From positions 12,183 through 76,182 of IMG/VR virus record IMGVR_UViG_3300032070_000001: a stretch of DNA of 64,000 nt; one strand, 5' to 3'. The stretch comes from a virus (Duplodnaviria > Heunggongvirae > Uroviricota > Caudoviricetes). A program made the position numbers and the translations under genes. Under the pieces are notes generated by a model that searched no databases, was not told the origin of the DNA, and saw only the letters and a program-made list of their open reading frames with translations. Each line of letters opens with the position of its first letter. Position 1 is the first letter of the stretch. Of this stretch, positions 21,508-61,123 are shown one piece after another.

Positions 21508-21557
21508 GATGCGTACTCCAAAGGTGAAAGGGTTAAAACGCAATCATCAAATGCACG

Positions 21558-39735: not shown

Positions 39736-42700
39736 TTAGAACACACTGACCCCGCGCCGAAGTTCCCGTTTTAGGGACTTGATAACTTCGCGTGCGGTCT
39801 GACGAGGCTCGACAGCCTCATTGATGTGAATGTCACCCACCGTGACGTTGGCAACCTGACCTCCCTGCGAACGAAAACTCGGCGCGATGCCCGCGTTCAT
39901 GGCCACAAGCTGACTGTACCAGCGCCTTGTGGCCTGCGCGCTCATCACGAACTCGTTGGGCGCAAGCATAGCAGGCACCATGTCTACGCCGCGAGGGGCA
40001 AAACCACCCCGATCAAAATGCCGAACGGCACCGCCGGCAACAAAGTCGAAGAAGTCCTCCAGTCCGGTGATATCCATCGAAGGAACGTCACCGTCACCGC
40101 CACCGCCACCCGAAGCCGCCGAAGCCGCAGCCGCCGAAGCCGCTGCCGCCCCCTTAGCAGCAACCCGTACATCGCGCCAATAATCAACCAACCGGCGAAC
40201 CGCGTCACCGGTGCCATTCACCGCCCGCGTCTGATCGCCAATGACATCAACAGTATCCGCTGCAATCTCCTCGCCCGCCTTTGCTGCTGTCGTTGTACTC
40301 CTCTCGGCTGTCGTCTTCTGTCCAAGCGCTTGAATCTCGCCCTGAATCGCATCCAGTTCAATCTTGCTCGGCTGTCCTTTCCCGACTTCCACCTCAGCCT
40401 GCTGCTTCTTGAGCAACTCGAAGCGCTTTAGCACCGCGTCACCCATTGTCGAGAGTTCCTCAGTGACCCGAGCCGCCGCGAACCGACCGAATGCCGAGCT
40501 TGCCGCCTTGTCGGCGACACTAAACAGCACGTCAAGCTGCCGCATGTCCTCGGTCGTAATCTTTTCAGCCTCATTCAGCCGTTTAAGCAGCGTGAAGGTG
40601 GCCTCAAGATGCTGTTCCGCCTCCTTCTGAATGCGTTCGGCTGCACCACCCGGCCGATTTGAAGTGTCAAATCTTTCCTGCATCCACTTGTCAAAGGCTC
40701 CCTGCCCGGCCCGTTGATTAGCCTCCAAATCCCTTTGATTCTGCGACTGCTGCAATCCGCGCACTGTAGCACCCGCCAACTTCTTCTCATAGGCGTCTAC
40801 CACTTTCGTAAGGCCATCGGCCAGAAGATCGAGACCCGTAACCTGTTCAATCTTCGCAATCACGGGGGCTTCGAGCCGTATCGCCTTGATACCGGCCTGT
40901 AATTGCTCATTTAGTCTGGCAATCGCCTCGGGAGCGGCTACAAGAGTTTGGATGCTTACGCCCGTCAACTGCCGTTCCAATTCCCGACGCATCGACGCAA
41001 AAGCCCGTGTATCCCCCATGAACGTCTTAGCAAAATCCTCTTTGCCGAATTTTTTCAAGTCGGCAGCGAACTTCTCAATCAAGCCCCCGGACTTTGCCAA
41101 ATCCGCTTCCAACTCCCCGCTCGTCTTCCGCCGCAAATTTCCTTCAGCATCCTTGGCCACCACGCTTAACGTTGCTTCAATGGCCTCGCGTTGCCGCTCT
41201 AACTCAGCATTATGACGCTCGGCCTGGAAGGCACGAGCCTCCAAGTCCTGAGAAAGCTTCTGTTGCAAGAGTGCCTGCGCCTGCAGGGACCCTATGCGCC
41301 GCCCGTCTATCTCATCAAGAAGCGCAAGGGCTTGTCGCTGGAGATTCACATCCTCTGTCTGCCTAGCAAGCTGCTCCGCTTGCTTCGCCAGCCCATCGGC
41401 GCGCCGCCAAGCTGAATCAGCCATCTTCTGCTGGTCAGCATCCTTCGCCCCCGCCTGGATGCTAGCCGCTTGATCCGCAAGTTTTTTGGCCCTCGCGGCG
41501 ACGGCGCGAAATTGCGCCTCTGGATCGTTAAAGCGCTGGATGCTCGTCTGAAATGCCCGATCAGCAATCTCGGCCTGAATTCCGGCAATCTCCCCCGGAA
41601 TCTCCGCGGCCTTCTTTGCCGCCGTCTCAGAGGCCGCAAACAGTTCACTGGTCATTTTCTGGCGCGACTGCATGATGCGGTCAAGCGCCAACTTGGCGAC
41701 CTTCTCCTCGATAGTGATAGCCGCTTTGAAGTTGTCGGCGTCCTGGAAATAGATTTTCTGAGCATCAGCCAAATAACGCCGTAGACCGCGTACAATCTCC
41801 TCGTTCTTCCGATCAGCCTCCCGAATAGCGGCAGCCGTCTTTTCCTGATTAGCTTTGATGTCCAGGTCACGCTCTTCCCGCAATGCAGTCTGCGCAGCTC
41901 CCGCCCGCTGCCCGAGCCAATTGCCGAGCAACTGGCCGAACGACTGAGCAAGTGGGATTCCAACAATTGCGAGCAAGCCCGCGCGCACACCCGTGATAGC
42001 GGTTCCCGCCAACGCAGCCTGCATCTTCATGGCCGCAAAAGCTAAGCCAACTAACCCAAGGCCCGCCGCACTCGCTACCACCGAGCCAAGTTGCCCGACA
42101 ACGATTCGCAAAACAGGCACCAGACCACCGGATCCACCAAGGGCATCAACGATTCCAAGAATCGAATGCACGGCATCCCGCCCAAATTCCGTCTTGAAAT
42201 AGTTGCTAATGCGATTGAGTTCGGCCGTCAATCGCTCGGCATCAGTCGAAGTAAACTCCGTGACCTTCTTGCGCAAAGTGTCCACGTCCACTTGACGCAG
42301 TTTGTCCATCGCCTCCTTGTATTTCTCCGCACCGCTACCTGCCAATCGCAAGGCACCCGGCAGAGCACGGGTGTTCGGAAACAACTTCGCGATGGAATTA
42401 GCTGCACCGTCTGTCGTGCTAATGACTTGCTGCAAAGCCCCTTGGAAGCCCCACGTCTGAACCGCAGCCTGCCCGGACTCAACCCTAAGACTCTGGAACG
42501 CCGCTTTCATACCATCCGAAGGCTTCAGAAGTGCCGCCATCATGCTGCGCAGTTGTGTAGCGGCCTCACTCGCCTTCACACCGCCAATCGTAATGGCAAT
42601 CAAAGACGCATCCAGTTCCTCCATGCTCAATCCAAGTTCATGCGCAATACCCTGAGTCCGACTCAAAGCGGCCCCCAACTCCTCCGTCCGCAGCCGGCCT

Positions 42701-43602
42701 AAGTCAATCGTGAGGTTGAACTGCGCCGCGCGCAACCCCGCCATATCCGACGACTCACCGTAGGCATTCAATGCCCCGGTCAACAGTTGCACGGATGCAG
42801 ATAGGTCTTGAACCGTGACCTTGGCTAACATATTAGCGGCCATAAGAATGTTCGCCCGATCTGCTGCCGTGACGAACTGGTCAGAAAGCGTCTGATACTG
42901 GGCCTCTGCCACACGCGAAAGAGGCTGATTGAAGGCATCCGACAATTTCCGAACATCGTCTGCAATCGCACCGAACGTGCGGCTTGGATCAAGCGCCCGA
43001 ATCTCACCGATACGCTTTGAAAAATCCAGAAAACCGCCAATGGCTTCTTTGATACCATCGCGCAAGGCACTTATTGTGCGAACAATCGCCTGAGTCACGA
43101 CCACCCTGGTCAGCGTCTCCCAACTAATCGCGAATCCCTGGGCTGCTTTCCCGGCATCGTCAAGCTTCTGACGCGCCTGTTCAAGCGCCCGCGTATGCGT
43201 GTCCTGACTAATCGCGCCTTTCTGATTCAACGCATCGAGGCGGGCGACTTGAGTAGTGTACTGCTCCAGCGGAGTGCGCGTCTGGTCAAAGATGTGAGCC
43301 GCCTCCTGAGCATCCTTTGACATCTTCGCCGCACCGCTCGCGCCAACGCCTGCACCCGCACCTGCGCCTGATACATTGGCGCTTCCCAATTTGTTTAGCG
43401 AAGCCAAGGTCGCATCCGCTTGGGCAGCCATCTGCTTCAACGCTGACACGACGCTTCCGGCCTCTTTGTTGAAAGAGTCGAAACGGGAGGTAATAGTCGT
43501 CAGTTGCGATCCAAAGGAATTGAACGCCTTATCCAGGCGCGCTAACTCATCAAGCGCCTGGGTGGCATTGAACTCAAGGCTTTGGCGAATGTCGTCAGGC
43601 AT
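39736..43602 (-). CDS. tail tape measure protein
   Basis: 1288 aa, dominated by coiled-coil/Ala-rich segments, and placed after the frameshifted chaperone pair. Confidence 0.8.
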   Translation of the reverse strand: MPDDIRQSLEFNATQALDELARLDKAFNSFGSQLTTITSRFDSFNKEAGSVVSALKQMAAQADATLASLNKLGSANVSGAGAGAGVGASGAAKMSKDAQEAAHIFDQTRTPLEQYTTQVARLDALNQKGAISQDTHTRALEQARQKLDDAGKAAQGFAISWETLTRVVVTQAIVRTISALRDGIKEAIGGFLDFSKRIGEIRALDPSRTFGAIADDVRKLSDAFNQPLSRVAEAQYQTLSDQFVTAADRANILMAANMLAKVTVQDLSASVQLLTGALNAYGESSDMAGLRAAQFNLTIDLGRLRTEELGAALSRTQGIAHELGLSMEELDASLIAITIGGVKASEAATQLRSMMAALLKPSDGMKAAFQSLRVESGQAAVQTWGFQGALQQVISTTDGAANSIAKLFPNTRALPGALRLAGSGAEKYKEAMDKLRQVDVDTLRKKVTEFTSTDAERLTAELNRISNYFKTEFGRDAVHSILGIVDALGGSGGLVPVLRIVVGQLGSVVASAAGLGLVGLAFAAMKMQAALAGTAITGVRAGLLAIVGIPLAQSFGQLLGNWLGQRAGAAQTALREERDLDIKANQEKTAAAIREADRKNEEIVRGLRRYLADAQKIYFQDADNFKAAITIEEKVAKLALDRIMQSRQKMTSELFAASETAAKKAAEIPGEIAGIQAEIADRAFQTSIQRFNDPEAQFRAVAARAKKLADQAASIQAGAKDADQQKMADSAWRRADGLAKQAEQLARQTEDVNLQRQALALLDEIDGRRIGSLQAQALLQQKLSQDLEARAFQAERHNAELERQREAIEATLSVVAKDAEGNLRRKTSGELEADLAKSGGLIEKFAADLKKFGKEDFAKTFMGDTRAFASMRRELERQLTGVSIQTLVAAPEAIARLNEQLQAGIKAIRLEAPVIAKIEQVTGLDLLADGLTKVVDAYEKKLAGATVRGLQQSQNQRDLEANQRAGQGAFDKWMQERFDTSNRPGGAAERIQKEAEQHLEATFTLLKRLNEAEKITTEDMRQLDVLFSVADKAASSAFGRFAAARVTEELSTMGDAVLKRFELLKKQQAEVEVGKGQPSKIELDAIQGEIQALGQKTTAERSTTTAAKAGEEIAADTVDVIGDQTRAVNGTGDAVRRLVDYWRDVRVAAKGAAAASAAAASAASGGGGGDGDVPSMDITGLEDFFDFVAGGAVRHFDRGGFAPRGVDMVPAMLAPNEFVMSAQATRRWYSQLVAMNAGIAPSFRSQGGQVANVTVGDIHINEAVEPRQTAREVIKSLKRELRRGVSVF

Positions 43603-44948: not shown

Positions 44949-46067
44949 TCACCCGCGGATGATTTCCGGTTCAGTCACGTTGCACTTGCCAGTGACCGCA
45001 ATCGTCGCACCCTTGATGTCGTAGTCCCGCTTCTCGCTGCGAAAATCCGGAAACGTCCACGTTTCCGATTGCCCAACGCAAGGCGGCACATATTCCACCA
45101 CGACATCCACGGCATACGGTTCGCAGGCATCGACGGACGAAGTAATCCACTCGGCTGCCCCGCCGATTCCCTTCACAGCGTCAACAGGGGTGATGACGTT
45201 ATCCGTTCCCGTTTTGACGTGCTCAAACGTGAAGTTCATATTCACGTCCATAGGCGTCTCGTCACCTTCACGCACAGTATCCAGAACCCCACGATCCTTA
45301 TCGTAGGTGTAGGCGTTCGCCTCGGAATACTTGAGGTCCCCATCACCGATCTTGACCTCAATCTGCTGCGGCAGGAAGGTAATAACAGCATCGGTGCTGT
45401 AACTACCGGGACCGAGCGGTGTATTGATGAATGTGATCGCCGTGGTGACAGCAGACGTAGCCGGCAAGGCTCCTCCCTGTGTCGTGACAACCGTAATCTC
45501 CGTCGTCGGCGTCAGGCTTGTACCATTGGCCACAATAAGAGCTTGAGGCTGGAAACCAAGAGCACCCTTGAACTCGACCACCCACGGGCTTCCATCATGC
45601 GTCACGTCCCAGTCATCCACGGTGTAGCCGTCATCCAACGCCACCAAAGCTGTCTTGAGAGTAGCCGCCGTGATATCAAAAGCCAAGGCCGAAGTCGTAT
45701 GGCCACCCCACGTCAAGGTAAAGGTGCCACCTGTTGCCGAAGTCGTAATCGTCTGTTTCGCATTTGCACCGGCACCGCCTTGCGTGCGGCCAGTCACGAT
45801 ATGAACAGCATCCGGGTCCGTCTCACCGGCGATGGTGAAACGCGCACCTAACGGAATCTTCTGTGTGAACCCACCAACCGCCGGTGGAATACTCACACTT
45901 GTCACAAGGCAACCGGAGTCATTCTCGACCACCGGAGCCGGCACTGCCGTTTTATTCCCAACGGCCGTGCAAGGATAGACAGCAGGGTTAGCCCCCAGGC
46001 CGTCCTTAATGTAAATCGTGCAGTTCTTCAGTTCGATTCTCGCCATGTGTTTGTCTCCACTTGGCAA
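44949..46067 (-). CDS. major tail protein with Ig-like module
   Basis: 372 aa, position before the chaperones. Internal module GGTFTLTWGGHTTSALAFDITAATLKTALVAL...WVVEFKG. Start probably at M8. Confidence 0.55.
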   Translation of the reverse strand: MPSGDKHMARIELKNCTIYIKDGLGANPAVYPCTAVGNKTAVPAPVVENDSGCLVTSVSIPPAVGGFTQKIPLGARFTIAGETDPDAVHIVTGRTQGGAGANAKQTITTSATGGTFTLTWGGHTTSALAFDITAATLKTALVALDDGYTVDDWDVTHDGSPWVVEFKGALGFQPQALIVANGTSLTPTTEITVVTTQGGALPATSAVTTAITFINTPLGPGSYSTDAVITFLPQQIEVKIGDGDLKYSEANAYTYDKDRGVLDTVREGDETPMDVNMNFTFEHVKTGTDNVITPVDAVKGIGGAAEWITSSVDACEPYAVDVVVEYVPPCVGQSETWTFPDFRSEKRDYDIKGATIAVTGKCNVTEPEIIRG

Positions 46068-47101: not shown

Positions 47102-47422
47102 CTACGATTGAGGACACTTGTTCCGAAGAGGACACTCGAATCGCCCGTCCATAGCTTTCTCCAATCGCTCCATCATCAACGTGTTCTGAGCGATCACGTC
47201 AGCGCACCGTTCCACCAGCGGCATGAGAACCTTCCGCTGTCCGTCTTCCAGAGTCTCGATGCGCTTCGTCATGCGGCATTCACGGACCCAACCCTGCCAG
47301 AGGAAGAAGGCTGTAACCAGAATCAACGGGCCGTACTGTTTGAGAAGGACAACCATGTCCATAAACGTATCACCGGCTGCCTGCGCAAAGAGCAAGTCCA
47401 TAAGGCATCTCCATTCACCCAT
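47102..47422 (-). CDS. small protein with one TM helix
   Basis: GPLILVTAFFLWQGW is hydrophobic. 106 aa. Confidence 0.45.
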   Translation of the reverse strand: MGEWRCLMDLLFAQAAGDTFMDMVVLLKQYGPLILVTAFFLWQGWVRECRMTKRIETLEDGQRKVLMPLVERCADVIAQNTLMMERLEKAMDGRFECPLRNKCPQS

Positions 47423-47492: not shown

Positions 47493-48926
47493 TTAGCCGA
47501 GAACCGGCACGAGCAGCCCGCTGTCGAGAACCGCCACACCCGCGAGGATGTCGCAGTTGACGACCACGCCGCCCGCGTTGATGTCGTACTGCATCAAGAC
47601 GCGCATCCCGATCCCGTTGTAGGGGACCACGGCGGCCATGACGCCCATCCGGGTGTCCGGGAGGGCGAGGGGGCGAGTGACCAGGGCCAAGGCGTCCCGA
47701 TGGAACGCCAGGTTCAGCGAACCCTTCGGCCCGGGATAAGCTTCAGCCGTACTCAGCACCTTTGCCTCCAACGGCCGATCCAAGAGGACCGTGGTGTGAG
47801 TCGAATCAACCACCGTCACCTCGATGATCGTGTAGGTATGACGGCCAAGCAGCGTGGCACCGAAGGCAAGCAACTGGCCCACCTGCAGGTACTTGTAGGC
47901 CGTATGCGTGAACGTCATAGCCTTACTGTAACCAGCGGCCCGATCCGTGGCTTCGTTCGCGCACTTCTTGTAATGCGTAACCACGGCCGTGGCCCCAGTA
48001 CCGTACTTGAGCGGCTCATTCAGGATAACATGGCCCGTAGTCGCGTCAAGCATCCAGGTCGGCTGGTCATTACCAGCAATGTTGAGAAACTCACCAGCGG
48101 AACCGGTGATAACGATGTCGATGTCGCCAGCGTACCCGGCCGCCTGAGCATCACTATTGACTGCCAAAAGTTCGTTCTCAGTCCCAGTCAGAACGCAGTT
48201 GACGTTCTGGCACATGAAGGTATCGAAGCCGAGGACGCGGCCGAGGGTCGCATTCTCCAGCGCCGTCCCGCCGTCGCCGCGCTCATTAGCCTTCAGGAAG
48301 ATAGGAGTCTTCAGCATGGCGGTCTCGGCTGTGGGAGCCATGACCAACCGACGACCATCCATCGGGGCCTTGTTAACGTTCAGACGCTCACGGGCGTCCA
48401 AAACGTAATCCTGAGCCGTCGTGGAATCGAGGCCACCTAGCTTGCCGACACGAGCCGCCGGATCGCCGAGGTAAGCGTGAATCCGCCCCAGGAGGGAACG
48501 GTCGATGCCTCGCGCGATGGCCTGCATCGCCGGCCGGAGGTAGATGTTCGTGAGTTCCTGGAAGGACTTGCTGCCTTCACCATCACGGATCACGAAAGAC
48601 TTGTAGAACCACTGGTCCAAAGGCACCGCCACATTGCTGGCGATGGCGTCATCCTGCACCAGAGTCGTGCCGTCCGTTTTCCGGCTGATCTTGAACTCGC
48701 CGGGCTTCCGAGTGTTCACGACATCACCAAACTTGGCAACGGCATTCTCGAAGTCACGATGGACGAGGCTGGCCATGACCATGTTCTCTTCGAGGATGGC
48801 CAGACCCTCCTGCGCCCAAAGTTCGGGCACGTAGGCGTCCAGAAGATTGCCGTCACCATTCGCGTAGCAGGCCACGAAGGGCCGAGAGAGGTAGAGGGAA
48901 TTCATGATGTTCACTCCGATTTTCAA
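47493..48926 (-). CDS. major capsid protein (putative)
   Basis: 477 aa, immediately after the scaffold gene and followed by a strong terminator. Confidence 0.6.
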   Translation of the reverse strand: MKIGVNIMNSLYLSRPFVACYANGDGNLLDAYVPELWAQEGLAILEENMVMASLVHRDFENAVAKFGDVVNTRKPGEFKISRKTDGTTLVQDDAIASNVAVPLDQWFYKSFVIRDGEGSKSFQELTNIYLRPAMQAIARGIDRSLLGRIHAYLGDPAARVGKLGGLDSTTAQDYVLDARERLNVNKAPMDGRRLVMAPTAETAMLKTPIFLKANERGDGGTALENATLGRVLGFDTFMCQNVNCVLTGTENELLAVNSDAQAAGYAGDIDIVITGSAGEFLNIAGNDQPTWMLDATTGHVILNEPLKYGTGATAVVTHYKKCANEATDRAAGYSKAMTFTHTAYKYLQVGQLLAFGATLLGRHTYTIIEVTVVDSTHTTVLLDRPLEAKVLSTAEAYPGPKGSLNLAFHRDALALVTRPLALPDTRMGVMAAVVPYNGIGMRVLMQYDINAGGVVVNCDILAGVAVLDSGLLVPVLG

Positions 48927-49000
48927 TTCCGCTCAAAGGTGCTGTCAGCCAACGTGGCTCACCAGTCACCAGAGCAACCTTTCACCGACCCCTGAGAAGT

Positions 49001-49852
49001 TTAGCGGCGCTTGGGCGCGAGACCGAGCAATTCAGGGTTCTTGGCTCGAATCTCTCGATACTGTGGGGGAGTCAACTTCCGCACGTCGATCTTGCCGCCT
49101 TGACCCGGCGTGAGGCCGCCGGTGACCGAACTGGAACCGATCCCCGAGACAACATTGGAACGAAACAGGTTGCCCCATTGCTCGGGTAATTCTTTCATAC
49201 GTTGGACCGCTTCATCCGGGGTCCGTGAGCACTTCACCATTTCCCCAGTCGTCGCATCCTTATCCAGCATCTTGACCATCGGCGTGTATGTGCCGATGGG
49301 CTTGCCCGTCGTGGGGTCCACGTCAGGCACCAGTTCCGTCTGACTGCGCAGTTGTGTCACAATCTGTCCCGGGCTGAATGCCTCATGCTTCACCGCGGCA
49401 TCCTGCAACGACCTGTCGATGGTGGAATCCCGGAAAAGGGCTTCCCAGACCTGTGCCTTCTTCTCGGCCTCAATCACCTTCTGCTGGTACGCCTCTTCCA
49501 ACTGGCGCTTTTCCAACTGCAACTGCTGCTCCTTCGTGCGCAACTGGCCCTGAACCGTTTCCAAATTGTCTTGCAGAGCCTTACGATCACTCTCAGTAAG
49601 CGTATTGCTCTCCAAAGCTCTTTGCAGCTTGGTCTCGACCTCTTGGAACTTCATCTGATGCTTGCGACGGTCGACGGCAAGAGCATCGTTGAACTTCTTC
49701 TGCTGGTCGGGCGTGAATCCTTCAGGCGGTCGCACGTCACTATCAGCGGCAGCGGCAGCAGCGGCAGCGGCAGCGGCAGCGGCGGCAGTAGCGGCATCCT
49801 CACCCTCGAAACATGACACCCACGGACGCGACAAATACAAAACGCTGAACAT
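49001..49852 (-). CDS. scaffolding protein (coiled-coil)
   Basis: Central heptad-rich region QEVETKLQRALESN...LQLEKRQLEEAYQQKVIEAEKK. Poly-Ala tract near the N-terminus. Confidence 0.55.
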   Translation of the reverse strand: MFSVLYLSRPWVSCFEGEDAATAAAAAAAAAAAAAADSDVRPPEGFTPDQQKKFNDALAVDRRKHQMKFQEVETKLQRALESNTLTESDRKALQDNLETVQGQLRTKEQQLQLEKRQLEEAYQQKVIEAEKKAQVWEALFRDSTIDRSLQDAAVKHEAFSPGQIVTQLRSQTELVPDVDPTTGKPIGTYTPMVKMLDKDATTGEMVKCSRTPDEAVQRMKELPEQWGNLFRSNVVSGIGSSSVTGGLTPGQGGKIDVRKLTPPQYREIRAKNPELLGLAPKRR

Positions 49853-49945
49853 TCAGCACTCCTCGAACCCCGATGAACAACAACAGGAACCCCGTCGCAA
49901 TCGGGTATTGACGGTCCTGGCCCGGCGTAGACCGGTGAAAGGTAG

Positions 49946-50033
49946 CTAAGACACCCGCCTAGCTAATACGTGAAAGCTTCAAAGCACCCGAGTCGCGCAA
50001 GAAAGGCTTAAGTAAGCGCCACGCGGCAGAACT
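49946..50033. repeat. ~88-bp direct repeat, copy A (intergenic); copy B at 50779-50866
   Basis: gcctagctaatacgtgaaagcttcaaagcacccgagtcgcgcaagaaaggcttaagtaagcgccacgcggcagaactcgacacc versus ccgctagctcatacgtgaaagtttcaaaacatccgagtcgcgcaagaaaggcttgagcaagcgccacgcgacagaactcggcacc, about 90% identical. Confidence 0.8.
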
Positions 50034-50060
50034 CGACACCTTAATATATTTGATACTCAC

Positions 50061-50768
50061 CTACACTTGAGCAGCACCAATAAGTGCTGGATAAATGGCG
50101 TCGTTATGCTCAGCAAGTGCAATTTCCAGCGCAATAGCCTTGATTGTCTCCGCACTGAAACGTCGCTCACTGACAGATGCGCCCTGAACCAATGCCGAAG
50201 GGACAACACCTTCCGCCGGCACCGTACCACGAAGGATGCCAAGGCGATCAACCAAAATCGCATACCCGAGCCGGTCGGCTTGACCCTCCGTTGTGACCGT
50301 GATCGCGCCTGCCGAACCGCCGCCCGTCAATTTGGCACCGTCGATCACCGTCAAAGCATGATTCGCTTCCTCGACCGATGCACCGTCGAACGTCAACGTA
50401 ACAGGAGTTGAGGTAAGAGGACCACCGGCAACAGAAATGTCACCGTTCGTCCAACCAACAACACCAGCCGACGTGGCAGCGACATCAATCGCAGTTTCAA
50501 TTGTTGCCGCATTGGCATTATACGCAATGTCGCCCGTCGTAAAGGTCTCGCCACTAACCAAAGTAACTGTTAGTGCAAAGGTACCGCCATCAACAGTTTC
50601 GACATAGATGGCGATTGACTGAACCTCATCGACAGCCTGCAAAGCGGCAGACAATTCAAAATCATGAACCGCCATGAGTTCACGATAGGCGCGCCGATCC
50701 AATGGATCAATCGGAGGCGTAGTATCAATTGTCACCGCCGCATTGAGAAAATCCGCAATAACACCCAT
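50061..50768 (-). CDS. Ig-like-module protein flanked by the 88-bp direct repeats
   Basis: Contains a diverged copy of the shared module (GGTFALTVTLVSGETFTTGDIAYNANAATIETAIDVA). Start taken at M27 so that copy B stays outside. The tabulated start is 50846. Confidence 0.45.
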   Translation of the reverse strand: MGVIADFLNAAVTIDTTPPIDPLDRRAYRELMAVHDFELSAALQAVDEVQSIAIYVETVDGGTFALTVTLVSGETFTTGDIAYNANAATIETAIDVAATSAGVVGWTNGDISVAGGPLTSTPVTLTFDGASVEEANHALTVIDGAKLTGGGSAGAITVTTEGQADRLGYAILVDRLGILRGTVPAEGVVPSALVQGASVSERRFSAETIKAIALEIALAEHNDAIYPALIGAAQV

Positions 50769-50782
50769 TTCAGATATCTCCG

Positions 50783-51322
50783 CTAGCTCATACGTGAAAG
50801 TTTCAAAACATCCGAGTCGCGCAAGAAAGGCTTGAGCAAGCGCCACGCGACAGAACTCGGCACCATGTTGATGATGTGCTCGATAGGCAGTTGCGACCGC
50901 TCGTAGACCGTCTTCACCGCCCCGTACCCCATCGAACTGACGGCCAGATTCTCTAGTTCCAATTCCGGGTCCTTGCCGTCCAGTAGCGCGTAGGCGATCT
51001 CGTACTCCGCGATGCGAATCTCCGTAGGCACCTCAGTATCACTGCCCCTGGGAAACTCCAAGAGTTGATCCGCCTCGGCCACTCGAATCTGCTCTTGCGT
51101 AGCAGATGGGTTCGCCTGCAAGAGAAGATAGACGCTGTTCTTGTAGCCTTTGTAGTTCAGAGTGTCGATGATGGTGCGCGCGGCAACCAGTGCTTTACCA
51201 CGATCCGCTGCTGTAGCATTCGTCCACGCCGTCTCATGAAGTCGGGTGACAAAATACTCATCCGCCTCCTCCAGATCACCGTAAACATCATCGTAAAGTG
51301 TCATTGCGTCACCGTCACCCAA
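50783..51322 (-). CDS. hypothetical head-associated protein
   Basis: 179 aa. Its 3' end is part of repeat copy B. Confidence 0.45.
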   Translation of the reverse strand: MGDGDAMTLYDDVYGDLEEADEYFVTRLHETAWTNATAADRGKALVAARTIIDTLNYKGYKNSVYLLLQANPSATQEQIRVAEADQLLEFPRGSDTEVPTEIRIAEYEIAYALLDGKDPELELENLAVSSMGYGAVKTVYERSQLPIEHIINMVPSSVAWRLLKPFLRDSDVLKLSRMS

Positions 51323-51328
51323 GCCCCA

Positions 51329-52624
51329 TCAAAACTTGTTAAAATGCCGCGAGAGGGGGAAATCCTCAAACACATTCCACTGACCACGAATCCTTAAAAT
51401 CGGTGGATGATTGAATGGAATCCCGTATATCCGACCATTTGGCGCTAAGACACCCCCTGTCCACTTCTCTTCAGCACCGTAGCTCCCAATAGTCGTTACG
51501 GTATCTGACACAGGATCAATTACAAGAATTGATGTGTCACGATAGGGAATACCATAGATGCGTCCATCAGGAGCCAAAACCCCACCTGCCCACTTATTTG
51601 ATGCTGTTCCGACATCACCGAAAGTTGTCGCTGTATCTGTGGTGGGATCAATCTTTAAGACCGATGCACTACTGGCCGGGATACCATAGATGCAACCATT
51701 CGGAGCCAAAACCCCACCATGCCACTTGTATGTTGCCGTCCCAAGATCGCCAAAAAGCGTAGTTGTATCTGTGGCAGGATCAATCTTTAACACGTATGCC
51801 CGACGGTCTGGAATCCCATAGATACAACCATTTGGTGCTAGTACGCCGCCCTTCCACTTCGTTAGCGATGTGCCAAGACTTCCGAATGTTGAATACGTGT
51901 CATTCGTTGGATTGATCTTTAAGATAGTCGCAATGCCAGTTGGAATCCCGTAGATCATTCCATTTGGAGCTAAGACACAACCCCACCACTTACTTCCGGT
52001 AGCAAAACTTCCGAATGTTGATACCGTGTCATTTGCCGGATTGATCCTCAGTATTGTAGACCCACCAAATGGCACAGAATAAATCATACCATTCGGAGCT
52101 AAAACACCGCCCGCCCACGCAGTCCCCTGCGTAGAGACAACACCTCCAAACATGGTCGCAGTGTTGGTAGTAGGATCAATTTTCAATATCGTTGGAGCCG
52201 TCAGACATTGATATGGTATCCCGTAGATACAGCCATTTGGTGCTAAAACGCCTCCAATCCAATGCCGTAAGTTGGCGGTATCAGGATTTGCAACAGTATC
52301 ATGAGCCGCATCATTGGGCACCCATCGTTGCAAAATCGACAACGCTTGAATTATTGCCAATCCATTGTTGCTGTTCTGCTCCCACTCGGGAAAACGAGCA
52401 ACATCCAAGAGATCGGCAACTCGAAGTTGTTGCATACCGCTGCCAATACCGGTATAAATATAGGCATTGTATGCCAATCGCTCTGGCCAAGTCACTTGAC
52501 GTAGACGACCACTCTCTGAGATAATCGGTTTTCGGGCCGCCATGACTCCAACATCCAGAATATCAGCAGTCTTCAACTGTTGAAGTCTACTGTTCACCAA
52601 TACAATAGGATGACGAGTAGCCAT
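51329..52624 (-). CDS. seven-bladed beta-propeller repeat protein
   Basis: Seven ~45-aa repeats of W.GGVLAPNG.IYGIP....IL.I.P..DT..TFG. The N-terminus has duplicated LQQLKTADILDV/MQQLRVADLLDV. Confidence 0.65.
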   Translation of the reverse strand: MATRHPIVLVNSRLQQLKTADILDVGVMAARKPIISESGRLRQVTWPERLAYNAYIYTGIGSGMQQLRVADLLDVARFPEWEQNSNNGLAIIQALSILQRWVPNDAAHDTVANPDTANLRHWIGGVLAPNGCIYGIPYQCLTAPTILKIDPTTNTATMFGGVVSTQGTAWAGGVLAPNGMIYSVPFGGSTILRINPANDTVSTFGSFATGSKWWGCVLAPNGMIYGIPTGIATILKINPTNDTYSTFGSLGTSLTKWKGGVLAPNGCIYGIPDRRAYVLKIDPATDTTTLFGDLGTATYKWHGGVLAPNGCIYGIPASSASVLKIDPTTDTATTFGDVGTASNKWAGGVLAPDGRIYGIPYRDTSILVIDPVSDTVTTIGSYGAEEKWTGGVLAPNGRIYGIPFNHPPILRIRGQWNVFEDFPLSRHFNKF

Positions 52625-52636
52625 TCTTACACCTAC

Positions 52637-53620
52637 CTATATCTCAATTGGTGTCTGAATGTTAATGACTAATCGCGTGGTATCCATTGCTACACCAAGC
52701 GATGCCAGAATCTCTCCGACTTCTGTTGGCGGTGTTACTGTCAACTTTCCAGCCGTTGTTGACAAGTAGTAGCGAGCGCCTTCAGTCAAACCACCAGTTT
52801 CGTCAGTTACAGCGTCCCATTCGTCGGTAGTTGCAACCAAGACGCCTGCATTCTGAATAGCACCATCCAAGCCATCTGCAATGGAGGCGTCTTCAACAAA
52901 TCCGATAACATCGGCTGTCAAAACAGCACTTGCCTCAGCGAGTGCCACTTTTCCGTTTGCCTTTGCATAGACAGGTTGGCATCTATTGATCGCGCTACCT
53001 TGGTCATTTGTGGCAGTAAACAATACACCAGTACCAGTGGGGCCTGTTGCACCGACTTCACCTTGCGGCCCAACCTCGCCCTGGATGCCTTGCGGCCCAA
53101 CCTCGCCCTGGATGCCTTGCGGCCCAACCTCGCCCTGGATGCCTTGCGGCCCAACCTCGCCCTGGATGCCTTGCAGCCCGACTTCGCCTCGCGGCCCGAC
53201 TTCACCTTGCAGCCCGACTTCGCCTCGCGGCCCGACTTCACCTTGCGGCCCGACTTCACCTTGCGGCCCGACTTCACCTTGCGGCCCGACTTCACCTTGC
53301 GGCCCGACTTCACCCGGCAGACCAGCAACGCCTTGTGGCCCAATATCCCCTTTGCCGGCGTAGGACCCAGGTTTTCCTTGCAGACCAATGGGTCCACGGT
53401 CGCCTTTCGGACCTCGTTCACCGCATGGTCCCGATGGTCCCGGCGGTCCCGGCGGTCCTGGCGGTCCTACGCCCCCCCCATCAGGTCCTAGTAACCCTTG
53501 CAGTCCACGATCTCCTTTGGGTCCGCGATCTCCTTTCGGACCTCTTTCACCACGTGGCCCCGGCGGTCCAATTAAAGATGCCATATCAACACGCAATCCA
53601 GGAAAACTGACTGCCCGCAC
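52637..53620 (-). CDS. collagen-like (G-X-Y) fibre protein with globular C-terminal domain
   Basis: About 190 aa of GxY triplets ([13 protein letters not shown]...), encoded by 27-bp and 18-bp perfect tandem repeats. Start may be M13 (53584). Confidence 0.8.
53060..53325. repeat. perfect tandem repeats (27-bp x4, 18-bp x5) inside the collagen-like gene
   Basis: ccttgcggcccaacctcgccctggatg x4, then cttgcggcccgacttcac x5. Confidence 0.9.
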
Positions 53621-54497
53621 TGGCGTCCGTCTTCGTAATGGTGATTGTGAAGCCAGCGTCGCCTTTCTGCGTCTCTGTGATTGTCACCGTCGTACTACCG
53701 CCTACAAGCAACGATCCATCACCCGTCATTGCGTCGACATTCATAAGAGCGAGTGCGCCCTTGAACTCGACCACCCAATCGACGCTCGGACCAGAACCAC
53801 CTGTCACTTCCACATCGCCAACCGCGATGTTGGACAAATCCTCCAATGCGGTCTGAACGGCAGCGGCCGTTGCGTTATAAGCAATGGCCGCAGTCGTCTG
53901 TCCGCTATAAGTCAACGTGAAAGTCCCAGACGAAGTGGCATCGTCGATAGCGACCGTCTGCTTCTCGTTGATGCCCCCATCAGTGCCGATCATCAAAGAC
54001 ATATCCGTCTTCGCCAATGTGCCTTGAAACTCCACAGTATACGGACCGCCCGCATCGCCGCTGACAGCAACATTACCCACCCCGATATTCGGCAGCGCCT
54101 CCAATACGTCTTCCACCGTTCCCGCTGTCGCCTCAACAGCAATCGGATCAGTCATCTCGCCATCCAGCGTCAAGGTAAACGTCTCACCGACGATATCACC
54201 TGAAAGCGTGACGACCTGCTGTGAATTGCCAGCCGGCGTAGCAATCATGTACACCGTACTGATGTCCTCGACCTGTACCTCCAACTCTTCGCCGGCTGGA
54301 AGCGGATAACCATCGACCACCGTAACACCGACACGACCGACATAGATCACGATACCATTGGCTGTTGCCGCGCGTACCCGTACACCTTTAAGCACGATTT
54401 CAGGTGCGTAGCCTGAAACAACAAGAGGCCGCGCCACAGCATCCGCCCCACCATGCCCCACCCAAAACTGTTTAACTGCAGTTCGCACTATGTCCAT
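53586..54497 (-). CDS. protein with two Ig-like modules
   Basis: The two copies are [44 protein letters not shown] and [45 protein letters not shown]. 53650-53860 is nucleotide-similar to 37840-38060. Confidence 0.55.
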
Positions 54498-54507
54498 TGA
54501 TCCGCCC

Positions 54508-56304
54508 TCACACTAGTTTTGGTTTTCCGGCACCGCGCACATGCGAAGCCGTAGTGTCTTGCAACGTTGTGTCGCGGCTAGCCGTCTTCTCATCTTCCCC
54601 GGCGTTGGGATTCGCGGACAAATCCGAGACACCGCGCGCCCCAGGATCACCCGCACTCCTGCCCCGAACCACCCCTTGCCCCTCGGCAATGCGCTTTACG
54701 CGCTCCAAATGATCGACTCGCGCCTTGAGATATTCGTCACCATCGAATCCCAAGGCAACCGAACCAACTTGCTCACCGAGCAACCCCGCTTGAACCGCTT
54801 GAATGATCGTCTGCGGATCACTATTCGTGTAGTGGGCGGCGTCGATTTCGTGGTTGATCTCATCCAGGTCGCTGACGCTAATCTTCCCACCAAGAATCGC
54901 CTGCACGATCCCCTTTGCAAACTCGCGCTTCACCTTGCGGCCCGGAATCTGATTCATCAATTTCGACAAGTCGCCCGCTTCCTTGATCCGGTCAGCATCC
55001 GTCTTGAGACTATACCGATCCGGATACTTGATCGTCGGAACTTGTCGCTTGGAAATTGTCCGCTCTTCGTAGGCCGCCCAAAACTCAGCAACCTGTCGCT
55101 CGCCGCTCTCCAGCAAAAGACCGATGTAACTCAACCCAGCTTCAAGGCCCTGGTTGTCCATCGCCTTTGATTCTGCCGAAGCCCGCACTGCCAAGCTCGA
55201 CACAGCCAGATTGACCAATTCGCGGATGTCTCCCTTGAGTTTGGCCTGCAATTCCAGGCTCGCTCTTAACGGCTCCGACGAGGGATTGATGAAGGCCGGT
55301 TGCACCATCCCTTTATCAAAGGCCCGACCATGCGTGGCACCAACCTTGATGTCCGTCTCTGCTGCCCCCTGGCCACCAGTCGTTGCGGTGCCGTCAGCCG
55401 TGGCGGCAACCTTCAAGTGAGCCCCCACCGCCCGCAGATCCTTCTGTTCGACGTAGAAGGGGAAGTTAGACCCCAGAGCGTAGCTCACGTCGCTCGAACC
55501 CAGGTTCAAAAGCGCAATCTGATGTTGGGCCACATCCTTTATCAGGCTCCCACCGATGTCCAGCATCACGAACGGAATCCGCGTCAGTTCCAACATGATC
55601 GGTCCCGCCGGCTGGCTAAACTGATCGACCGGTGTGCCCTCCAAATTGTAGAACTGCAGGTTAACCTTTTTTGTCTCTTCGTCGATCCAAAGGTAGCGAT
55701 ACCGCTGCACCGAGATCGTCGGCAAGAAGTACGCCTGGTCGTATTGCATCACCGTGTCGCGGAGTAAGACGGCCTGGAACTCGGACGGAGCCTCGGGCTT
55801 CATGCAAGTCCAGGAAAGAATGTCCTCGATGTCGTACTTGTACAGATACGGCGCGACATTCCCTATATCCGCCAAGGTTGCCGTTGCCGAGACCGGCGGG
55901 GCATCCACGTACACACCCACCCGCCCCATGACCAACAATTCCGTCAGAACTTTGACGCCGATGAAGGCGTTCATCGTCGAACCCCGACGATCCACACCCA
56001 GATTCAAGCCGTTAACCGCACTCTGATACGTTGAACTGCCGTCCTTCCGCGTAATATCTCTCATACGCTGATAGATGGAGTTGCGAATGTCGTTGATGGC
56101 CGCACCCGCGAATTTCGGGATCGGCGTCATCGCCTTTCGCCGGATGAACTCCGTCTGGTCTTCCCTCGCGGAAAACTTCTCCAGGTAGACTTCCCGAAAC
56201 TCGTCCCCACCCCCGTAGGTCAGACGCCACTTACACCAATCGGTCATTCCGGAGAGGTAGCCCGGATACCGACTGTCAACCAAGTTGATTACCGCGTCGG
56301 GCAT
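54508..56304 (-). CDS. portal protein (putative)
   Basis: 598 aa, immediately downstream of the large terminase. Confidence 0.6.
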   Translation of the reverse strand: MPDAVINLVDSRYPGYLSGMTDWCKWRLTYGGGDEFREVYLEKFSAREDQTEFIRRKAMTPIPKFAGAAINDIRNSIYQRMRDITRKDGSSTYQSAVNGLNLGVDRRGSTMNAFIGVKVLTELLVMGRVGVYVDAPPVSATATLADIGNVAPYLYKYDIEDILSWTCMKPEAPSEFQAVLLRDTVMQYDQAYFLPTISVQRYRYLWIDEETKKVNLQFYNLEGTPVDQFSQPAGPIMLELTRIPFVMLDIGGSLIKDVAQHQIALLNLGSSDVSYALGSNFPFYVEQKDLRAVGAHLKVAATADGTATTGGQGAAETDIKVGATHGRAFDKGMVQPAFINPSSEPLRASLELQAKLKGDIRELVNLAVSSLAVRASAESKAMDNQGLEAGLSYIGLLLESGERQVAEFWAAYEERTISKRQVPTIKYPDRYSLKTDADRIKEAGDLSKLMNQIPGRKVKREFAKGIVQAILGGKISVSDLDEINHEIDAAHYTNSDPQTIIQAVQAGLLGEQVGSVALGFDGDEYLKARVDHLERVKRIAEGQGVVRGRSAGDPGARGVSDLSANPNAGEDEKTASRDTTLQDTTASHVRGAGKPKLV

Positions 56305-56319
56305 ATCCTGAACCTCTCG

Positions 56320-57981
56320 TCAGATGTCTTGGCCGCCCGGTGACACCGGAGCCAATGCCAAGCCAATATCAGCATAGACCAGGCTGTGAGCGTAGTGATC
56401 CGGTCCCGTGTTTACGTAGGTAGCGACCAAGTTCTTGTGGTCATCCTTCTCATAAGTCCGCACCAGGTTCTTGACGTGCTCGCGGTATTCCAACGAGATG
56501 TCCCGAGGCAGCAAGATGCGCGACGGCTTCGTCTTGAAGCGACCCAGGCTGCAACTGATCCAACTCGTGCGATCTACGATAGCGAACGGTGCCCCTGTCT
56601 CTTCTTCCTGAATAGCGATTTCCTTGGCCGTCTGCCCCCGCCGGTATCGCGTCAGCCATACGTAGCCCCGAAACTTCCGGGCAAAGCGGCGGGCGTCATT
56701 CACATTCGGGTCGGCATCCACCACAGCAGCCAGGACTTGCCACTCCCGCATCAGGTCCCCGAGGTAATCCCAACCATCCTCGGGAAAGTGCCCGAACCAC
56801 AGCAGCTTGGCGATAGCCGCCGAATTGATGTCGCTCCCCGGCGGCCGATCAAACAACCACTCCACCACTGAGATGTAGCCCGTCTTCCCCTGGTCCGCCC
56901 CCATCGTTATCAGCCGCGTGCCGCCTACCTGGGGTCGCGGATCGTTGATCGTATGTCCCTTGAGGCAGTTCTCCAGCATCGCATCCGTGACCTGGGCACC
57001 CTCGCCGATGAAGGGAATCCCGATCTTGCTGCAATGAAACTCCGTTGCCGCCGCCTCGTCGCCTAGACCTTGGTGGTAGGCAATCACCAACTCACCAGGC
57101 GTCACCGTGGATGAGTAAAGCTGGTTGATGTAGAAGCTCCGCCTCTCGTCCACCGAAACCTGTAGCTCGGTCGCCTTCCACTGGCCACCGGCAAGGAACT
57201 CAGGCTTCGCCGCATGTTCCAGCCGGTGCTTGCACTCCTTGCATTTAAGAAAGGACTGCTTGCAGCGTGGATCGTTGACCGACTCCCCGATGATCTCGAC
57301 GCAATCCGGCCAGATCAGTTCCGTTTGCCGGCCGCAATGCGGACACTGGAAGTAAAAGTGCTCTTGAGTGCCCGTTAGGTATAGTTTGTGGATGCCGTAC
57401 TTTGGCACGGTCGGGGTGGAGATCGCCAGGATGTGCTTTTCCACCTGGCCACTCAGGCGCTCCAACGCCAGCCACACCGCATGAATGTCCATCTCATCCA
57501 GTTCGTCCAAGATCAACTCGGACACGGGGATGGACTTCAGGTTGCTGTCACCACGGCTCCCACGGATGTACAGGACATTGCGGCCCGTCGATTTGAGCCC
57601 TACCGTGTTCGTATCGACGAACAACCCCTTGAGATAATCGCTCAGCTTCAGGGCCGTCGTAAACCGAGCCTTGGAAAAGTCGCTCGCGTTAATCGACGTG
57701 GGCAGAACGTAGAGCACGTCCCGCTTCGACTGATCGAGCACGTAAAAGGCCCGGTTGATTCCGGTCTCCGTGACGCCCATCTGGGCGGCCTTCATGGCGA
57801 TGGTCCAAGCCGCCTTACTGTCGTGAATCTCGCGGCACCACGGATGCCACAGGAAGCTGTAGTTTCCCTCAAATGGTGCCCCCATCACCCGGCGATACTC
57901 AGCCCACCGGCTGCAAGACGTAAGCGTCTTGCTTTTAAGCCCCTCGGTAATGGTGGCTTTCAGGTCCGCGAGGAGGCTCAT
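56320..57981 (-). CDS. terminase large subunit
   Basis: 553 aa. N-terminal ATPase-like region with acidic LILDELDEMD box. First gene of the structural operon. Confidence 0.75.
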   Translation of the reverse strand: MSLLADLKATITEGLKSKTLTSCSRWAEYRRVMGAPFEGNYSFLWHPWCREIHDSKAAWTIAMKAAQMGVTETGINRAFYVLDQSKRDVLYVLPTSINASDFSKARFTTALKLSDYLKGLFVDTNTVGLKSTGRNVLYIRGSRGDSNLKSIPVSELILDELDEMDIHAVWLALERLSGQVEKHILAISTPTVPKYGIHKLYLTGTQEHFYFQCPHCGRQTELIWPDCVEIIGESVNDPRCKQSFLKCKECKHRLEHAAKPEFLAGGQWKATELQVSVDERRSFYINQLYSSTVTPGELVIAYHQGLGDEAAATEFHCSKIGIPFIGEGAQVTDAMLENCLKGHTINDPRPQVGGTRLITMGADQGKTGYISVVEWLFDRPPGSDINSAAIAKLLWFGHFPEDGWDYLGDLMREWQVLAAVVDADPNVNDARRFARKFRGYVWLTRYRRGQTAKEIAIQEEETGAPFAIVDRTSWISCSLGRFKTKPSRILLPRDISLEYREHVKNLVRTYEKDDHKNLVATYVNTGPDHYAHSLVYADIGLALAPVSPGGQDI

Positions 57982-58378: not shown

Positions 58379-58750
58379 TCAATGATGCACTCTCAAGAGC
58401 ATAGCCACAACGACATCAATGTTGTTGGTCCGCACCACTGGTTCTCCAGACACAGAGACAATGAACATCGGAACCGCGCCAACGTTGTATCGTCTTGCCA
58501 ACTCGGGATGTATGTCGATGTCCACGATCTGCACCTCCACCCCAGTCGCCTGAAGCTCCAGCAAACGTAGTTTGGCCTTCTGGCACGGAACACACCAAGT
58601 TGCAGTAAATGCGACGATTTTCGCTCGATACGGGCATGGGGCAGGTGGTTGCACAGATGGCGATGTCTCGCAACCCGCGATCAAAACCAGGGCACCCAAC
58701 AATGCCGCTAGCGGCAGGATAACAGACCGAAGAAAGGCTCGATATCTCAT
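58379..58750 (-). CDS. exported thioredoxin-fold lipoprotein (CxxC)
   Basis: Signal and lipobox LVLIAGC. Active-site-like TATWCVPCQ. Confidence 0.65.
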   Translation of the reverse strand: MRYRAFLRSVILPLAALLGALVLIAGCETSPSVQPPAPCPYRAKIVAFTATWCVPCQKAKLRLLELQATGVEVQIVDIDIHPELARRYNVGAVPMFIVSVSGEPVVRTNNIDVVVAMLLRVHH

Positions 58751-60098: not shown

Positions 60099-60662
60099 TT
60101 ACTGCGGCAGGGGTGCGGCCGGCGTGTAGACCGGCGTGACCGCCCACCCGTAACTGGCCTTCCACTCGGCGATCAATGTTGCCCGAGGAACCCAAATGAA
60201 CTTGGAGACGTTGTTATTGTCGAGGATCGCGGCCCACTGGCTGTCCAAGTGGACCAGGGTGACCATGTGAGCGCCACCCATGATCGTGATCCCGCACCCG
60301 CGCCGGGTTCGACAGGCCCACTTCAGGAACCACACGTCCCCATTCGTGGTGTAGGCGTAACGGATGTTCGCCCGGTCGAGCTTGGCGGCCAGATCATCCG
60401 GCTCCTCGCCGTTGCCGTAGGTCCGCCGCCAGTAGTCCGCCGTCTTGTCTCGGCCCTGCCAGCGGAGGAGGCTAATCATCGTCGCGTGGACGCACGATCC
60501 TTGACGCTGATTGCCGACCCAGTTGCTCTGCCGCAGGGCGAGCGGTAGGTTGACGGTCGGCCGTTCGATCTTGATCGGATGGGTTCCAATCGTCGGAACA
60601 TCGCAGCCAGCCACCAACAAAACCAGTGCAACAAGAATTTGCTTCAAACCGAATTGAGACAT
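60099..60662 (-). CDS. lipoprotein with papain-fold (C39-like) peptidase domain
   Basis: Lipobox LLVAGC. QGSCVHATMISLLRW ... GGAHMVTLVHLD gives a Cys/His arrangement. Confidence 0.5.
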   Translation of the reverse strand: MSQFGLKQILVALVLLVAGCDVPTIGTHPIKIERPTVNLPLALRQSNWVGNQRQGSCVHATMISLLRWQGRDKTADYWRRTYGNGEEPDDLAAKLDRANIRYAYTTNGDVWFLKWACRTRRGCGITIMGGAHMVTLVHLDSQWAAILDNNNVSKFIWVPRATLIAEWKASYGWAVTPVYTPAAPLPQ

Positions 60663-61123
60663 GCAAATTCTCCAAAATGTTTCAATGCGGCCTCGTTATA
60701 GGCCCTTGCAGCATCACGCGAGTCGTCAAAAAGCCCTAAGTATCGCTGACGCCTGTGCAACCCGATATAGGCTCGCCACTTCCCGAGTTGTTTGTGCCAG
60801 GAAACACCCTTGAAACCCGATGCGCTATCCCTCCGCCGTCTCTGGTTTGCGGCATTCTGTCTATCAGTTGCCATCCGCAAGTTGCTTCGACAGTTATTAC
60901 ACGTATCGCGGTTGGCATGGTCAATCTTCAGATTTCCACACTTCAGGCCGCACCTTTCGGCGACGACACGGTGCATCCACACAATCTTGCGGACTTCACC
61001 TCGCTGACGCCGCGCGGCGTATTGCCCATCCACCGCAGCGTGCCACTTCCATTGCATCAGGTACTCGTAATCACAGTCGTCTACCAGTGCCTCCCTGCCT
61101 TTGGTCAACGGAATGGCTTTCAC
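60644..61123 (-). CDS. HNH-AP2 homing endonuclease (copy 3)
   Basis: GTG start (RC of 61121-61123) overlapping the upstream TAG, with GGAGG 9 nt upstream. VKAIPLTKG..., IDHANRDTCNNCRSNLR, SGFKGVSWHKQLGKWRAYIGLHRRQRYLGLFDDSRDAARAYNEAALKHFGEFA. Tabulated ORF 60644..61252 is N-extended. Confidence 0.75.
   Translation of the reverse strand: MKAIPLTKGREALVDDCDYEYLMQWKWHAAVDGQYAARRQRGEVRKIVWMHRVVAERCGLKCGNLKIDHANRDTCNNCRSNLRMATDRQNAANQRRRRDSASGFKGVSWHKQLGKWRAYIGLHRRQRYLGLFDDSRDAARAYNEAALKHFGEFACLNSV

Follow-up and report, generated by a model that had tools for sequence, protein, structure and literature searches.

In this study, we have explored a short peptide carried at the N-terminus of two structural proteins of a tailed phage (Caudoviricetes) represented by the IMG/VR record IMGVR_UViG_3300032070_000001. 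The window, that is the whole stretch of DNA that was analysed, comprises 64,000 nucleotides (nt; positions 12,183 to 76,182 of that record) and holds most of the genome of a siphophage of uncultured Planctomycetes hosts. On its minus strand lie the gene of the major capsid protein (47493..48905, 470 amino acids (aa), P22 coat-protein family) and, directly upstream of it as in every complete related locus, the gene of the scaffolding protein (49001..49852, 283 aa, phrog_206 with E 2.3e-7). The peptide, hereafter the leader, follows the formula M-x(2-3)-LYLS-x-P-(F/W)-x-x-C-(Y/F) and occupies the extreme N-terminus of both proteins: it is encoded by codons 1-14 of the capsid gene (48864..48905, minus strand, MNSLYLSRPFVACY) and by codons 1-15 of the scaffold gene (49808..49852, minus strand, MFSVLYLSRPWVSCF), where an acidic poly-Ala low-complexity linker follows (scaffold residues 16-44, EGEDAATAAAAAAAAAAAAAADSD..., 49721..49807, minus strand). 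A preliminary description of this DNA had reported a peptide common to capsid and scaffold, and both copies are indeed present on the minus strand. The identities it had given to the two proteins also hold. The capsid is a P22-type coat protein that passes the PF11651 cut-off with 115.5 bits against 24 (E 3.5e-33) and matches phrog_283 (E 4.7e-62), with 1278 homologues and an AlphaFold2 (AF2) model at a predicted local distance difference test score (pLDDT) of 86. The scaffold, in addition to its phrog_206 match, has a helical AF2 model, in which residues 48-155 form long helices, 172-210 a small beta domain and 262-276 the C-terminal helices, and it ends in a basic, conserved C-terminus (...LTPxQYREIRAKNPELLGLAPKRR).

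The leader is translated as part of both proteins. In the scaffold gene, an in-frame TGA (49853-49855) directly precedes the ATG and a ribosome-binding site, GAGGAG (49859..49864, minus strand), is found 6 nt upstream of it, which excludes the case that the preliminary description had named as fatal to its proposal, namely a scaffold start past the poly-Ala tract. In the capsid gene, the start is almost certainly the ATG at 48905 and not the upstream TTG at 48926, because a GGAG ribosome-binding site (48914..48917, minus strand) lies 8 nt upstream of this ATG, the homologues begin MN(R/S)LYLS and the sequence 5' of the ATG is unconserved; the peptide therefore corresponds to capsid residues 2-14 and not to residues 9-21, as had been reported from the TTG. 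The alignments of the capsid with phrog_283, Pfam and cultured-phage capsids begin at residues 20-33, i.e. past the leader. The leader thus marks true start codons, which are sometimes misplaced by gene callers and had been misplaced in the preliminary description.

Within the window, a six-frame scan locates neither LYLSRP nor the 11-mer (up to 4 substitutions allowed) anywhere but at these two sites, and six-frame regular-expression scans return no additional leader-bearing open reading frames (ORFs). When the N-termini of the window proteins are compared, at least 8 of 11 identities are reached by 2 of 1711 pairs: capsid with scaffold, and two paralogous HNH-AP2 endonucleases. Outside the window, conservation in homologous phages, which had been proposed as a check, is extensive. 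The 182 related loci plus the window yielded 131 capsid/scaffold pairs, of which 89 are distinct (178 leaders), and every pair has the leader on both proteins; it is likewise found in 119 of 120 scaffold homologues and in nearly all full-length capsid homologues. Retention of the peptide at the protein level in the scaffold homologues also points to ATG 49852 as the start of that gene.

The capsid leaders have the consensus M-N-R-L-Y-L-S-Q-P-F-V-A-C-Y-E-N (with the proposed bond marked, MNRLYLSQPFVAC(Y)|E), and the scaffold leaders M-x-x-S-L-Y-L-S-R-P-W-(V/S)-(S/A)-C-F-E-G-E. The Cys is residue 13 in 82 of the 89 capsids and residue 14 in 44 of the 89 scaffolds, and all 178 leaders have Y or F directly after it. 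Over the first 45 residues of the scaffold alignment, strong conservation is limited to Y6, C14, F15, E16 and G17, with C14 invariant and the other four at least 90% conserved, while the linker that follows is hypervariable, being swapped among homologues for GA repeats, AAEK repeats or poly-Ala. Replacements of the Cys in the leaders are few and comprise Ser (capsid and scaffold of L182, scaffolds of L177 and L180), Ala (capsid of L087/L148) and Val (the distant capsids of L011 and L013). Several scaffold leaders contain a second Cys (e.g. KSCALVACY, RGCVSCF).

In several relatives, the capsid gene is split soon after the leader and the start of the N-arm (...AYIPEL | WAQEG...) by an insertion of ~680 nt (L025, 6466-7165; same site in L042-L044, L046, L106, L117, L121 and L140), so that the capsids reported by gene callers are truncated (426-428 aa) and begin MANLVHRDF. 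The match of this insertion to the group I intron model RF00028 is full-length (28 bits, E 5.5e-5, under the gathering score), and it encodes an ORF of 162 aa in which a LAGLIDADG-like motif is recognisable (LGGIVDGEGCI).

The likeness of the two leaders is selected at the protein level, as the preliminary description had proposed from the codons that differ between the two genes. In the window, the same codon is used at one of eight identical residues other than Met and Trp (a Val, GTG). Across the 89 pairs, identical leader residues (n=644) share their codon in 37% of cases, against 49% expected from codon usage; same-codon use being below expectation, gene conversion or other homogenisation of the DNA does not keep the leaders alike and was ruled out as the cause, and nor do the leaders stem from a recent DNA duplication. 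That the resemblance would come from chance, from a recent duplication or conversion, or from an untranslated region read through a miscalled start has nothing more in its favor than the adjacency of the two genes, and we consider it refuted, not only by codon use and by the rarity of 8/11 identities among the N-terminus pairs, but also by the stop codon and ribosome-binding site that fix the scaffold start and by the amino acids kept despite synonymous change in 89 pairs.

Furthermore, the two leaders of one phage co-vary. Of 17 anchored positions, leaders of the same phage have 7.46 in common, whereas shuffled pairs have 6.19 +/- 0.11 (the observed value is not reached in any of 2000 shuffles), and joint departures from both consensuses amount to 23 kinds (61 cells) against ~9 kinds (19 cells) after shuffling, statistics that ignore phylogeny, so that kinship inflates the counts. 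The joint departures occur in many separate clades (TVCY/TVCY, LICF/LICF, VCFD/VCFD, (S/V)TCY, VR(Y/F)ACY, AQF(A/S)CF, RAVL and the double Cys to Ser). Examples of such paired leaders are VSY/ISY in L182, where Cys is replaced by Ser in both, LICF/LICF in L007, TVCY/TVCY in L009, VRYACY/VRFACY in L068 and AQFACF/AQFSCF in L175.

A third carrier of the leader is a putative major tail (tube) protein. In the window, its gene (44949..46046, minus strand; matches to the 'major tail protein' families phrog_10909 and phrog_792) is located upstream of two small ORFs and the tape-measure gene, and its product begins MARIELKNCTIYIKDGL..., without a leader, as do ~75 other distinct tube homologues, which begin MARIELRD. 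A leader hidden Markov model (HMM) run over the 14,077 open frames of all loci matched, besides capsids and scaffolds and their frameshifted or split copies, two lineages of tagged tube proteins and nothing else. The first lineage is represented by L007 (tube at +10154, MNPLYLAPAMLICF-ARIELRDATIRIQDGL, with the junction MNPLYLAPAMLICF|ARIELRD) and by L197, a second member of the same clade (MNLLYLAPAMLICF|ARIELRD); the second is L074 (tube at +6811, MMNKLYLSKSVVGCY-ARIELRDCVLSLLDGL, with the junction MMNKLYLSKSVVGCY|ARIELRD). When IMG/VR was scanned at the DNA level with a degenerate form of C(Y/F)ARIELRD, just these two lineages were recovered (L197, and L198, which is the L074 contig again). 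A profile of leader plus tube N-terminus found 8 proteins, all untagged, and a scan for the capsid-type leader found capsids plus one chance match and no other carrier.

In both lineages, the tube leader matches the leaders of its own phage. The capsid leader of L007 is MNPLYLATAMLICF, and the tube and capsid leader DNAs of this phage are partly identical, the ribosome-binding region included, which suggests a fairly recent copy; the tube leader of L074 is similar to LYLSKSV, the leader of the scaffold. It is exactly the initiator Met that the leader replaces in each of the two independent events, so that the unit is M...C(Y/F), movable onto unrelated proteins and not specific to capsids. The leader is thus a portable module that ends right after the aromatic residue, and its role is not limited to capsids.

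Structural models place the leader outside the folded part of either protein. In the AF2 monomer models, it is predicted to be disordered (pLDDT <50 at capsid 1-20 and scaffold 1-44), the helix of the capsid N-arm beginning at ~residue 23-27; since it is disordered in both models, no docking site can be deduced from them. An N-terminal peptide with small residues before a Cys bears a superficial likeness to a lipoprotein or secretion signal, with x-x-C as a lipobox, and a few longer variants do look like signal peptides (L009, MKLSLIHLTALASAAVTVC). This explanation is effectively refuted by several observations. None of the 89 capsid and none of the 89 scaffold leaders satisfies all three conditions of a PROSITE-type rule ({DERK}(6)-[LIVMFWSTAG](2)-[LIVMFYSTAGCQ]-[AGS]-C, Cys at residues 15-35, K or R in the first 7 residues). 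The Cys stands at residue 13-14 and can be replaced by A, S or V, the mean hydropathy is ~0.2-0.3, i.e. weakly hydrophobic, and the longest stretch without charged, polar (N/Q/H) or Pro residues has a median of 4-5. A true lipoprotein of the same phage (60099-60662, MSQFGLKQILVALVLLVAGC) looks quite different, and capsid assembly and DNA packaging are cytoplasmic.

The preliminary description had proposed that the peptide could be a signal for docking to the portal or to a protease, or for cleavage. If it is an uncleaved assembly tag, the leaders of capsid and scaffold would bind each other (e.g. by pairing of beta-strands or via the Cys), a common pocket or the portal, and so nucleate or organise the procapsid. 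This would agree with the co-variation of same-phage leaders, with their predicted flexibility and tethering, with the second Cys of several scaffold leaders and with the expectation, by analogy with P22, that both N-termini face the procapsid interior. There is also a precedent, in that the scaffold leader of the staphylococcal phage 80alpha is essential for assembly while its cleavage is dispensable (PMC5744158). Nevertheless, we find this explanation unlikely. A docking tag on the tail tube, as found in two lineages, would draw tube protein into procapsids, and the presence of the same phage-specific leader there disfavours both portal docking and any capsid-specific docking. In L087/L148 the capsid Cys has become Ala while the scaffold retains its Cys, and a disulfide link would have to form in a reducing cytoplasm. 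In addition, the short helices at 262-276 and the basic, conserved tail that close the scaffold together resemble the coat-binding end of the P22 scaffold.

Alternatively, the leader could act on the nascent chain, by recruiting a chaperone or by aiding early elongation and the yield of highly expressed, aggregation-prone structural proteins, with later removal being optional. All carriers (capsid, scaffold and, in some cases, tube) are proteins that polymerise and are made in very large amounts, the leader is hydrophobic, aromatic and predicted to be disordered, and the authors of the 80alpha work float a shared-chaperone idea for their motif (PMC5744158). We nevertheless hold this role to be improbable. 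The aromatic residue is invariant, the Cys nearly so and the end point fixed, which makes for a sharply defined motif, whereas chaperone binding and effects on early elongation are normally degenerate in sequence, and the phage-specific co-variation is hard to square with a generic chaperone.

For a cleaved leader, the obvious partner would be a prohead protease of the phage, for which the window offers no support: Pfam scans of ~59 window ORFs and PHROGs searches of 12 returned no cytoplasmic or prohead protease, although a highly divergent one could escape such searches. The genes between portal and capsid encode Ig-like (immunoglobulin-like), collagen-like and DUF6923 proteins, an Ad1 adaptor, an uncharacterised ORF and the scaffold, and none of these has a peptidase match. 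The sole peptidase of the window is a Trypsin_2-like serine peptidase encoded 27 kb away (20536-21543, minus strand), whose N-terminus (MRFNPFTFGVRIMKYVLLVLTLIALAAGPAVA|SVPDE; MKYVLLVLTLIALAAGPAVA|SVPDE) is predicted to be a signal or transmembrane segment. We considered it as a candidate prohead protease and find this unlikely, its predicted topology placing it outside the cytoplasm; it may instead act on the host envelope, for example during lysis. Related viral contigs encode this peptidase at 75-86% identity, and the related capsid gene is present on three of them.

Based on these results, we infer that the leader could be an N-terminal propeptide of ~11-14 residues with the core (L/W)-Y-L-S-x-x-x-x-x-C-(Y/F), borne by the most abundant self-assembling proteins of the virion (capsid and scaffold always, tail tube occasionally). 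One factor acting in trans would recognise it as a disordered linear motif, which the linker tethers to the scaffold, and this factor would most probably be a protease that cuts after Tyr or Phe. The mature proteins would then begin (A/E/D)-N-... for the capsid, E-G-E-... for the scaffold and A-R-I-E-L-... for the tube; on a tagged tube, such a cut would yield the N-terminus of the untagged tubes, if the initiator Met of the latter is removed, as expected before Ala, and this exact C(Y/F)|ARIELRD junction lends the proposed removal its one piece of indirect support. The conserved positions lie on the N-terminal side of the proposed bond, and the residues past it differ among capsid, scaffold and tube. 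The factor would probably be supplied by the host, because the Pfam scans of the window show no cytoplasmic protease gene, and a host enzyme could also account for the co-variation, as all leaders of one phage would track the same host specificity. A disordered and tethered motif, its sharp conservation up to the aromatic residue, its fixed end in three unrelated proteins, the co-variation and the lack of a detected phage protease all fit a leader that is recognised in trans and cleaved.

Several observations nevertheless weigh against this proposal. In the main clade, position -3 differs systematically and stably, being F in capsids and W in scaffolds, which indicates that the two leaders cannot simply stand in for each other as signals. 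No candidate protease, of host or phage, has been identified. A 17-position leader profile compared with 1.84 billion representative proteins gave a single match at E <= 0.001, a scaffold fragment, and thus no host protein bearing the leader, in a search that lists E <= 0.001 only and has almost no statistical power at 17 positions. The tagged tubes are rare, being confined to two lineages on three distinct contigs. By analogy with 80alpha, a leader can matter for reasons besides its removal. Finally, the LYLS..P(F/W)..C(Y/F) motif differs from (D/N)LQ(F/L)F|A(S/H)KK, the cleaved motif of the 80alpha system. Taking together these points and those above, we judge recognition in trans followed by cleavage to be evenly poised between right and wrong.

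A more specific form of the proposal is that of host mimicry, in which an undescribed protease of Planctomycetes would act on some abundant protein of the host and take off its ...C-(Y/F) leader, much as Prp does with L27 in Firmicutes, and a large family of P22-like siphophages would have convergently copied that leader onto capsid, scaffold and sometimes tube. We put this forward tentatively, and consider it rather doubtful as it stands. If it were true, the leaders of the phages would be a read-out of host enzyme specificity, which would explain their co-variation within each phage.

The genomic context of the leader is that of a siphophage. The window encodes a replication and DNA metabolism set comprising a family A DNA polymerase (12489-15125), a ligase, two ParB-like proteins and a methylase, as well as a DUF5906 protein (27896-30604), the tape-measure protein (39736-43602), the portal (54508-56304) and the large terminase (56320-57981). 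The closest relatives of the capsid are encoded in metagenome-assembled genomes (MAGs) of Thermoguttaceae, Pirellulales and other Planctomycetota and on IMG/VR and metagenome contigs, and the hosts of the relatives are uncultured MAGs throughout; several relatives lie on megabase contigs and are therefore prophages. In deposited phage genomes, the top capsid matches have <35% identity, with alignments from residues 20-33.

Around the head genes, a small ORF directly 3' of the capsid gene (47102-47422, minus strand) is kept in 160 related loci at a median identity of 69%. It sits within the head module without a family match and encodes a hydrophobic segment (LLKQYGPLVLVVAFLLWQGW) followed by a segment that looks helical by eye (KRIxKLEDEQRxVLxPLVERCADVIAQNT). 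On the other side of the scaffold gene, the interval 50061-53620 is an island of low third-position GC content (0.41-0.46 against 0.6-0.76 in the adjoining genes) and contains a 261-aa ORF, a DUF6923 repeat protein gene (51329-52624) and a collagen-repeat protein gene (52637-53620). These three genes are present in just 10-13 related loci and are therefore probably recent acquisitions. The 261-aa ORF (50061-50846), which has no family match, is flanked by an 82-nt direct repeat (49959-50040 and 50783-50864, 90% identity) that is a copy of the 3' end of the head-tail adaptor gene. It looks like an inserted moron, because in relatives the adaptor gene directly precedes the scaffold gene. Between the portal gene and the island, a protein (53586-54497, minus strand) with a conserved N-terminal domain (....KGVRV) followed by Ig-like repeats, which match 'major tail protein' PHROGs, has homologues of ~206 to 610 aa (L015, L020) and may decorate the head or form a fibre.

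The region immediately upstream of the terminase gene encodes a thioredoxin-fold protein with a signal-peptide-like N-terminus (58379-58750, minus strand, MRYRAFLRSVILPLAALLGALVLIA) and the classical lipobox protein already mentioned (minus strand, ...LVAGC). Homing-endonuclease-like genes with HNH and AP2 domains are found at 6382-6891, 8900-9406 and 60644-61252, and one with HNH at 2360-3943; two of these proteins have similar N-termini (IPLTQG...). These genes suggest that mobile endonucleases are active in this phage family, which agrees with the intron found in the capsid genes of relatives.

Three known systems can be compared with the leader described here. In P22 itself, the coat belongs to the same family (PF11651), a helical scaffold with short C-terminal helices and a basic C-terminus is likewise encoded just upstream, and there is no protease gene in the head module. 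To our knowledge, the P22 coat gp5 and scaffold gp8 have no common N-terminal leader and are not processed; in our phages, by contrast, the leader lies before the region covered by the family profile and the cultured-phage alignments, which start at residues 20-33. The CTS (capsid targeting sequence) of T4 is a short portable N-terminal peptide found on several non-homologous internal proteins, which it directs into the scaffolding core, and it is cut by the prohead protease gp21 at L/I-x-E. Our leader is similarly short, N-terminal and portable among several non-homologous phage proteins, and its removal is proposed here, but it has another motif, no prohead protease was found in the window, and one of its carriers, the tube, should not be destined for capsids.

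The closest parallel is with 80alpha, even though its capsid protein is of the HK97 type, which is not closely related to the P22-type coat of our phages. The capsid and scaffold of 80alpha share an N-terminal motif of 13-14 residues with the host ribosomal protein L27, the host protease Prp cuts the 80alpha proteins between F and A, and the motif is also present on the major tail protein of phi13 (PMC5744158). The Prp motif has been written as MLxx(D/N)LQ(F/L)F|A(S/H)KK, and in streptococci the L27 motif and the Prp sequence co-vary (PMC9405229), to which the co-variation within our phages would be akin if a host enzyme sets the leader. The resemblance with our system is fourfold: an N-terminal leader of ~13-14 aa is common to the capsid and scaffold of one phage, the same leader is found on a non-homologous tail protein in some relatives (two lineages here), an aromatic and then a small residue mark the leader end (many leaders here read ...CF|A, where Prp cuts F|A), and no prohead protease gene was found in the phage. 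As to the motif, only the terminal aromatic plus small residue is comparable. The phyla in which long L27 and Prp have been reported (PMC9405229) do not include the Planctomycetota, to which the hosts here belong, and the literature that we searched contains nothing tying Planctomycetes to either. Because of the different motif and of these hosts, the leader cannot be filed as a member of the Prp system, although, as far as sequences tell, it may work like it.

In the literature searched, 80alpha-type staphylococcal phages were otherwise the only case of one N-terminal leader on both capsid and scaffold. The leader described here represents a second case, unrelated in sequence and from a distant phylum, that agrees with the first in leader length, in the proteins concerned and in that no phage protease gene was found, which suggests a general strategy to control proteins that polymerise in very large numbers. 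The 80alpha leader revealed the essential host protease Prp; in a similar manner, the C-(Y/F) motif offers a handle for finding a processing enzyme and its cellular substrate in Planctomycetes.

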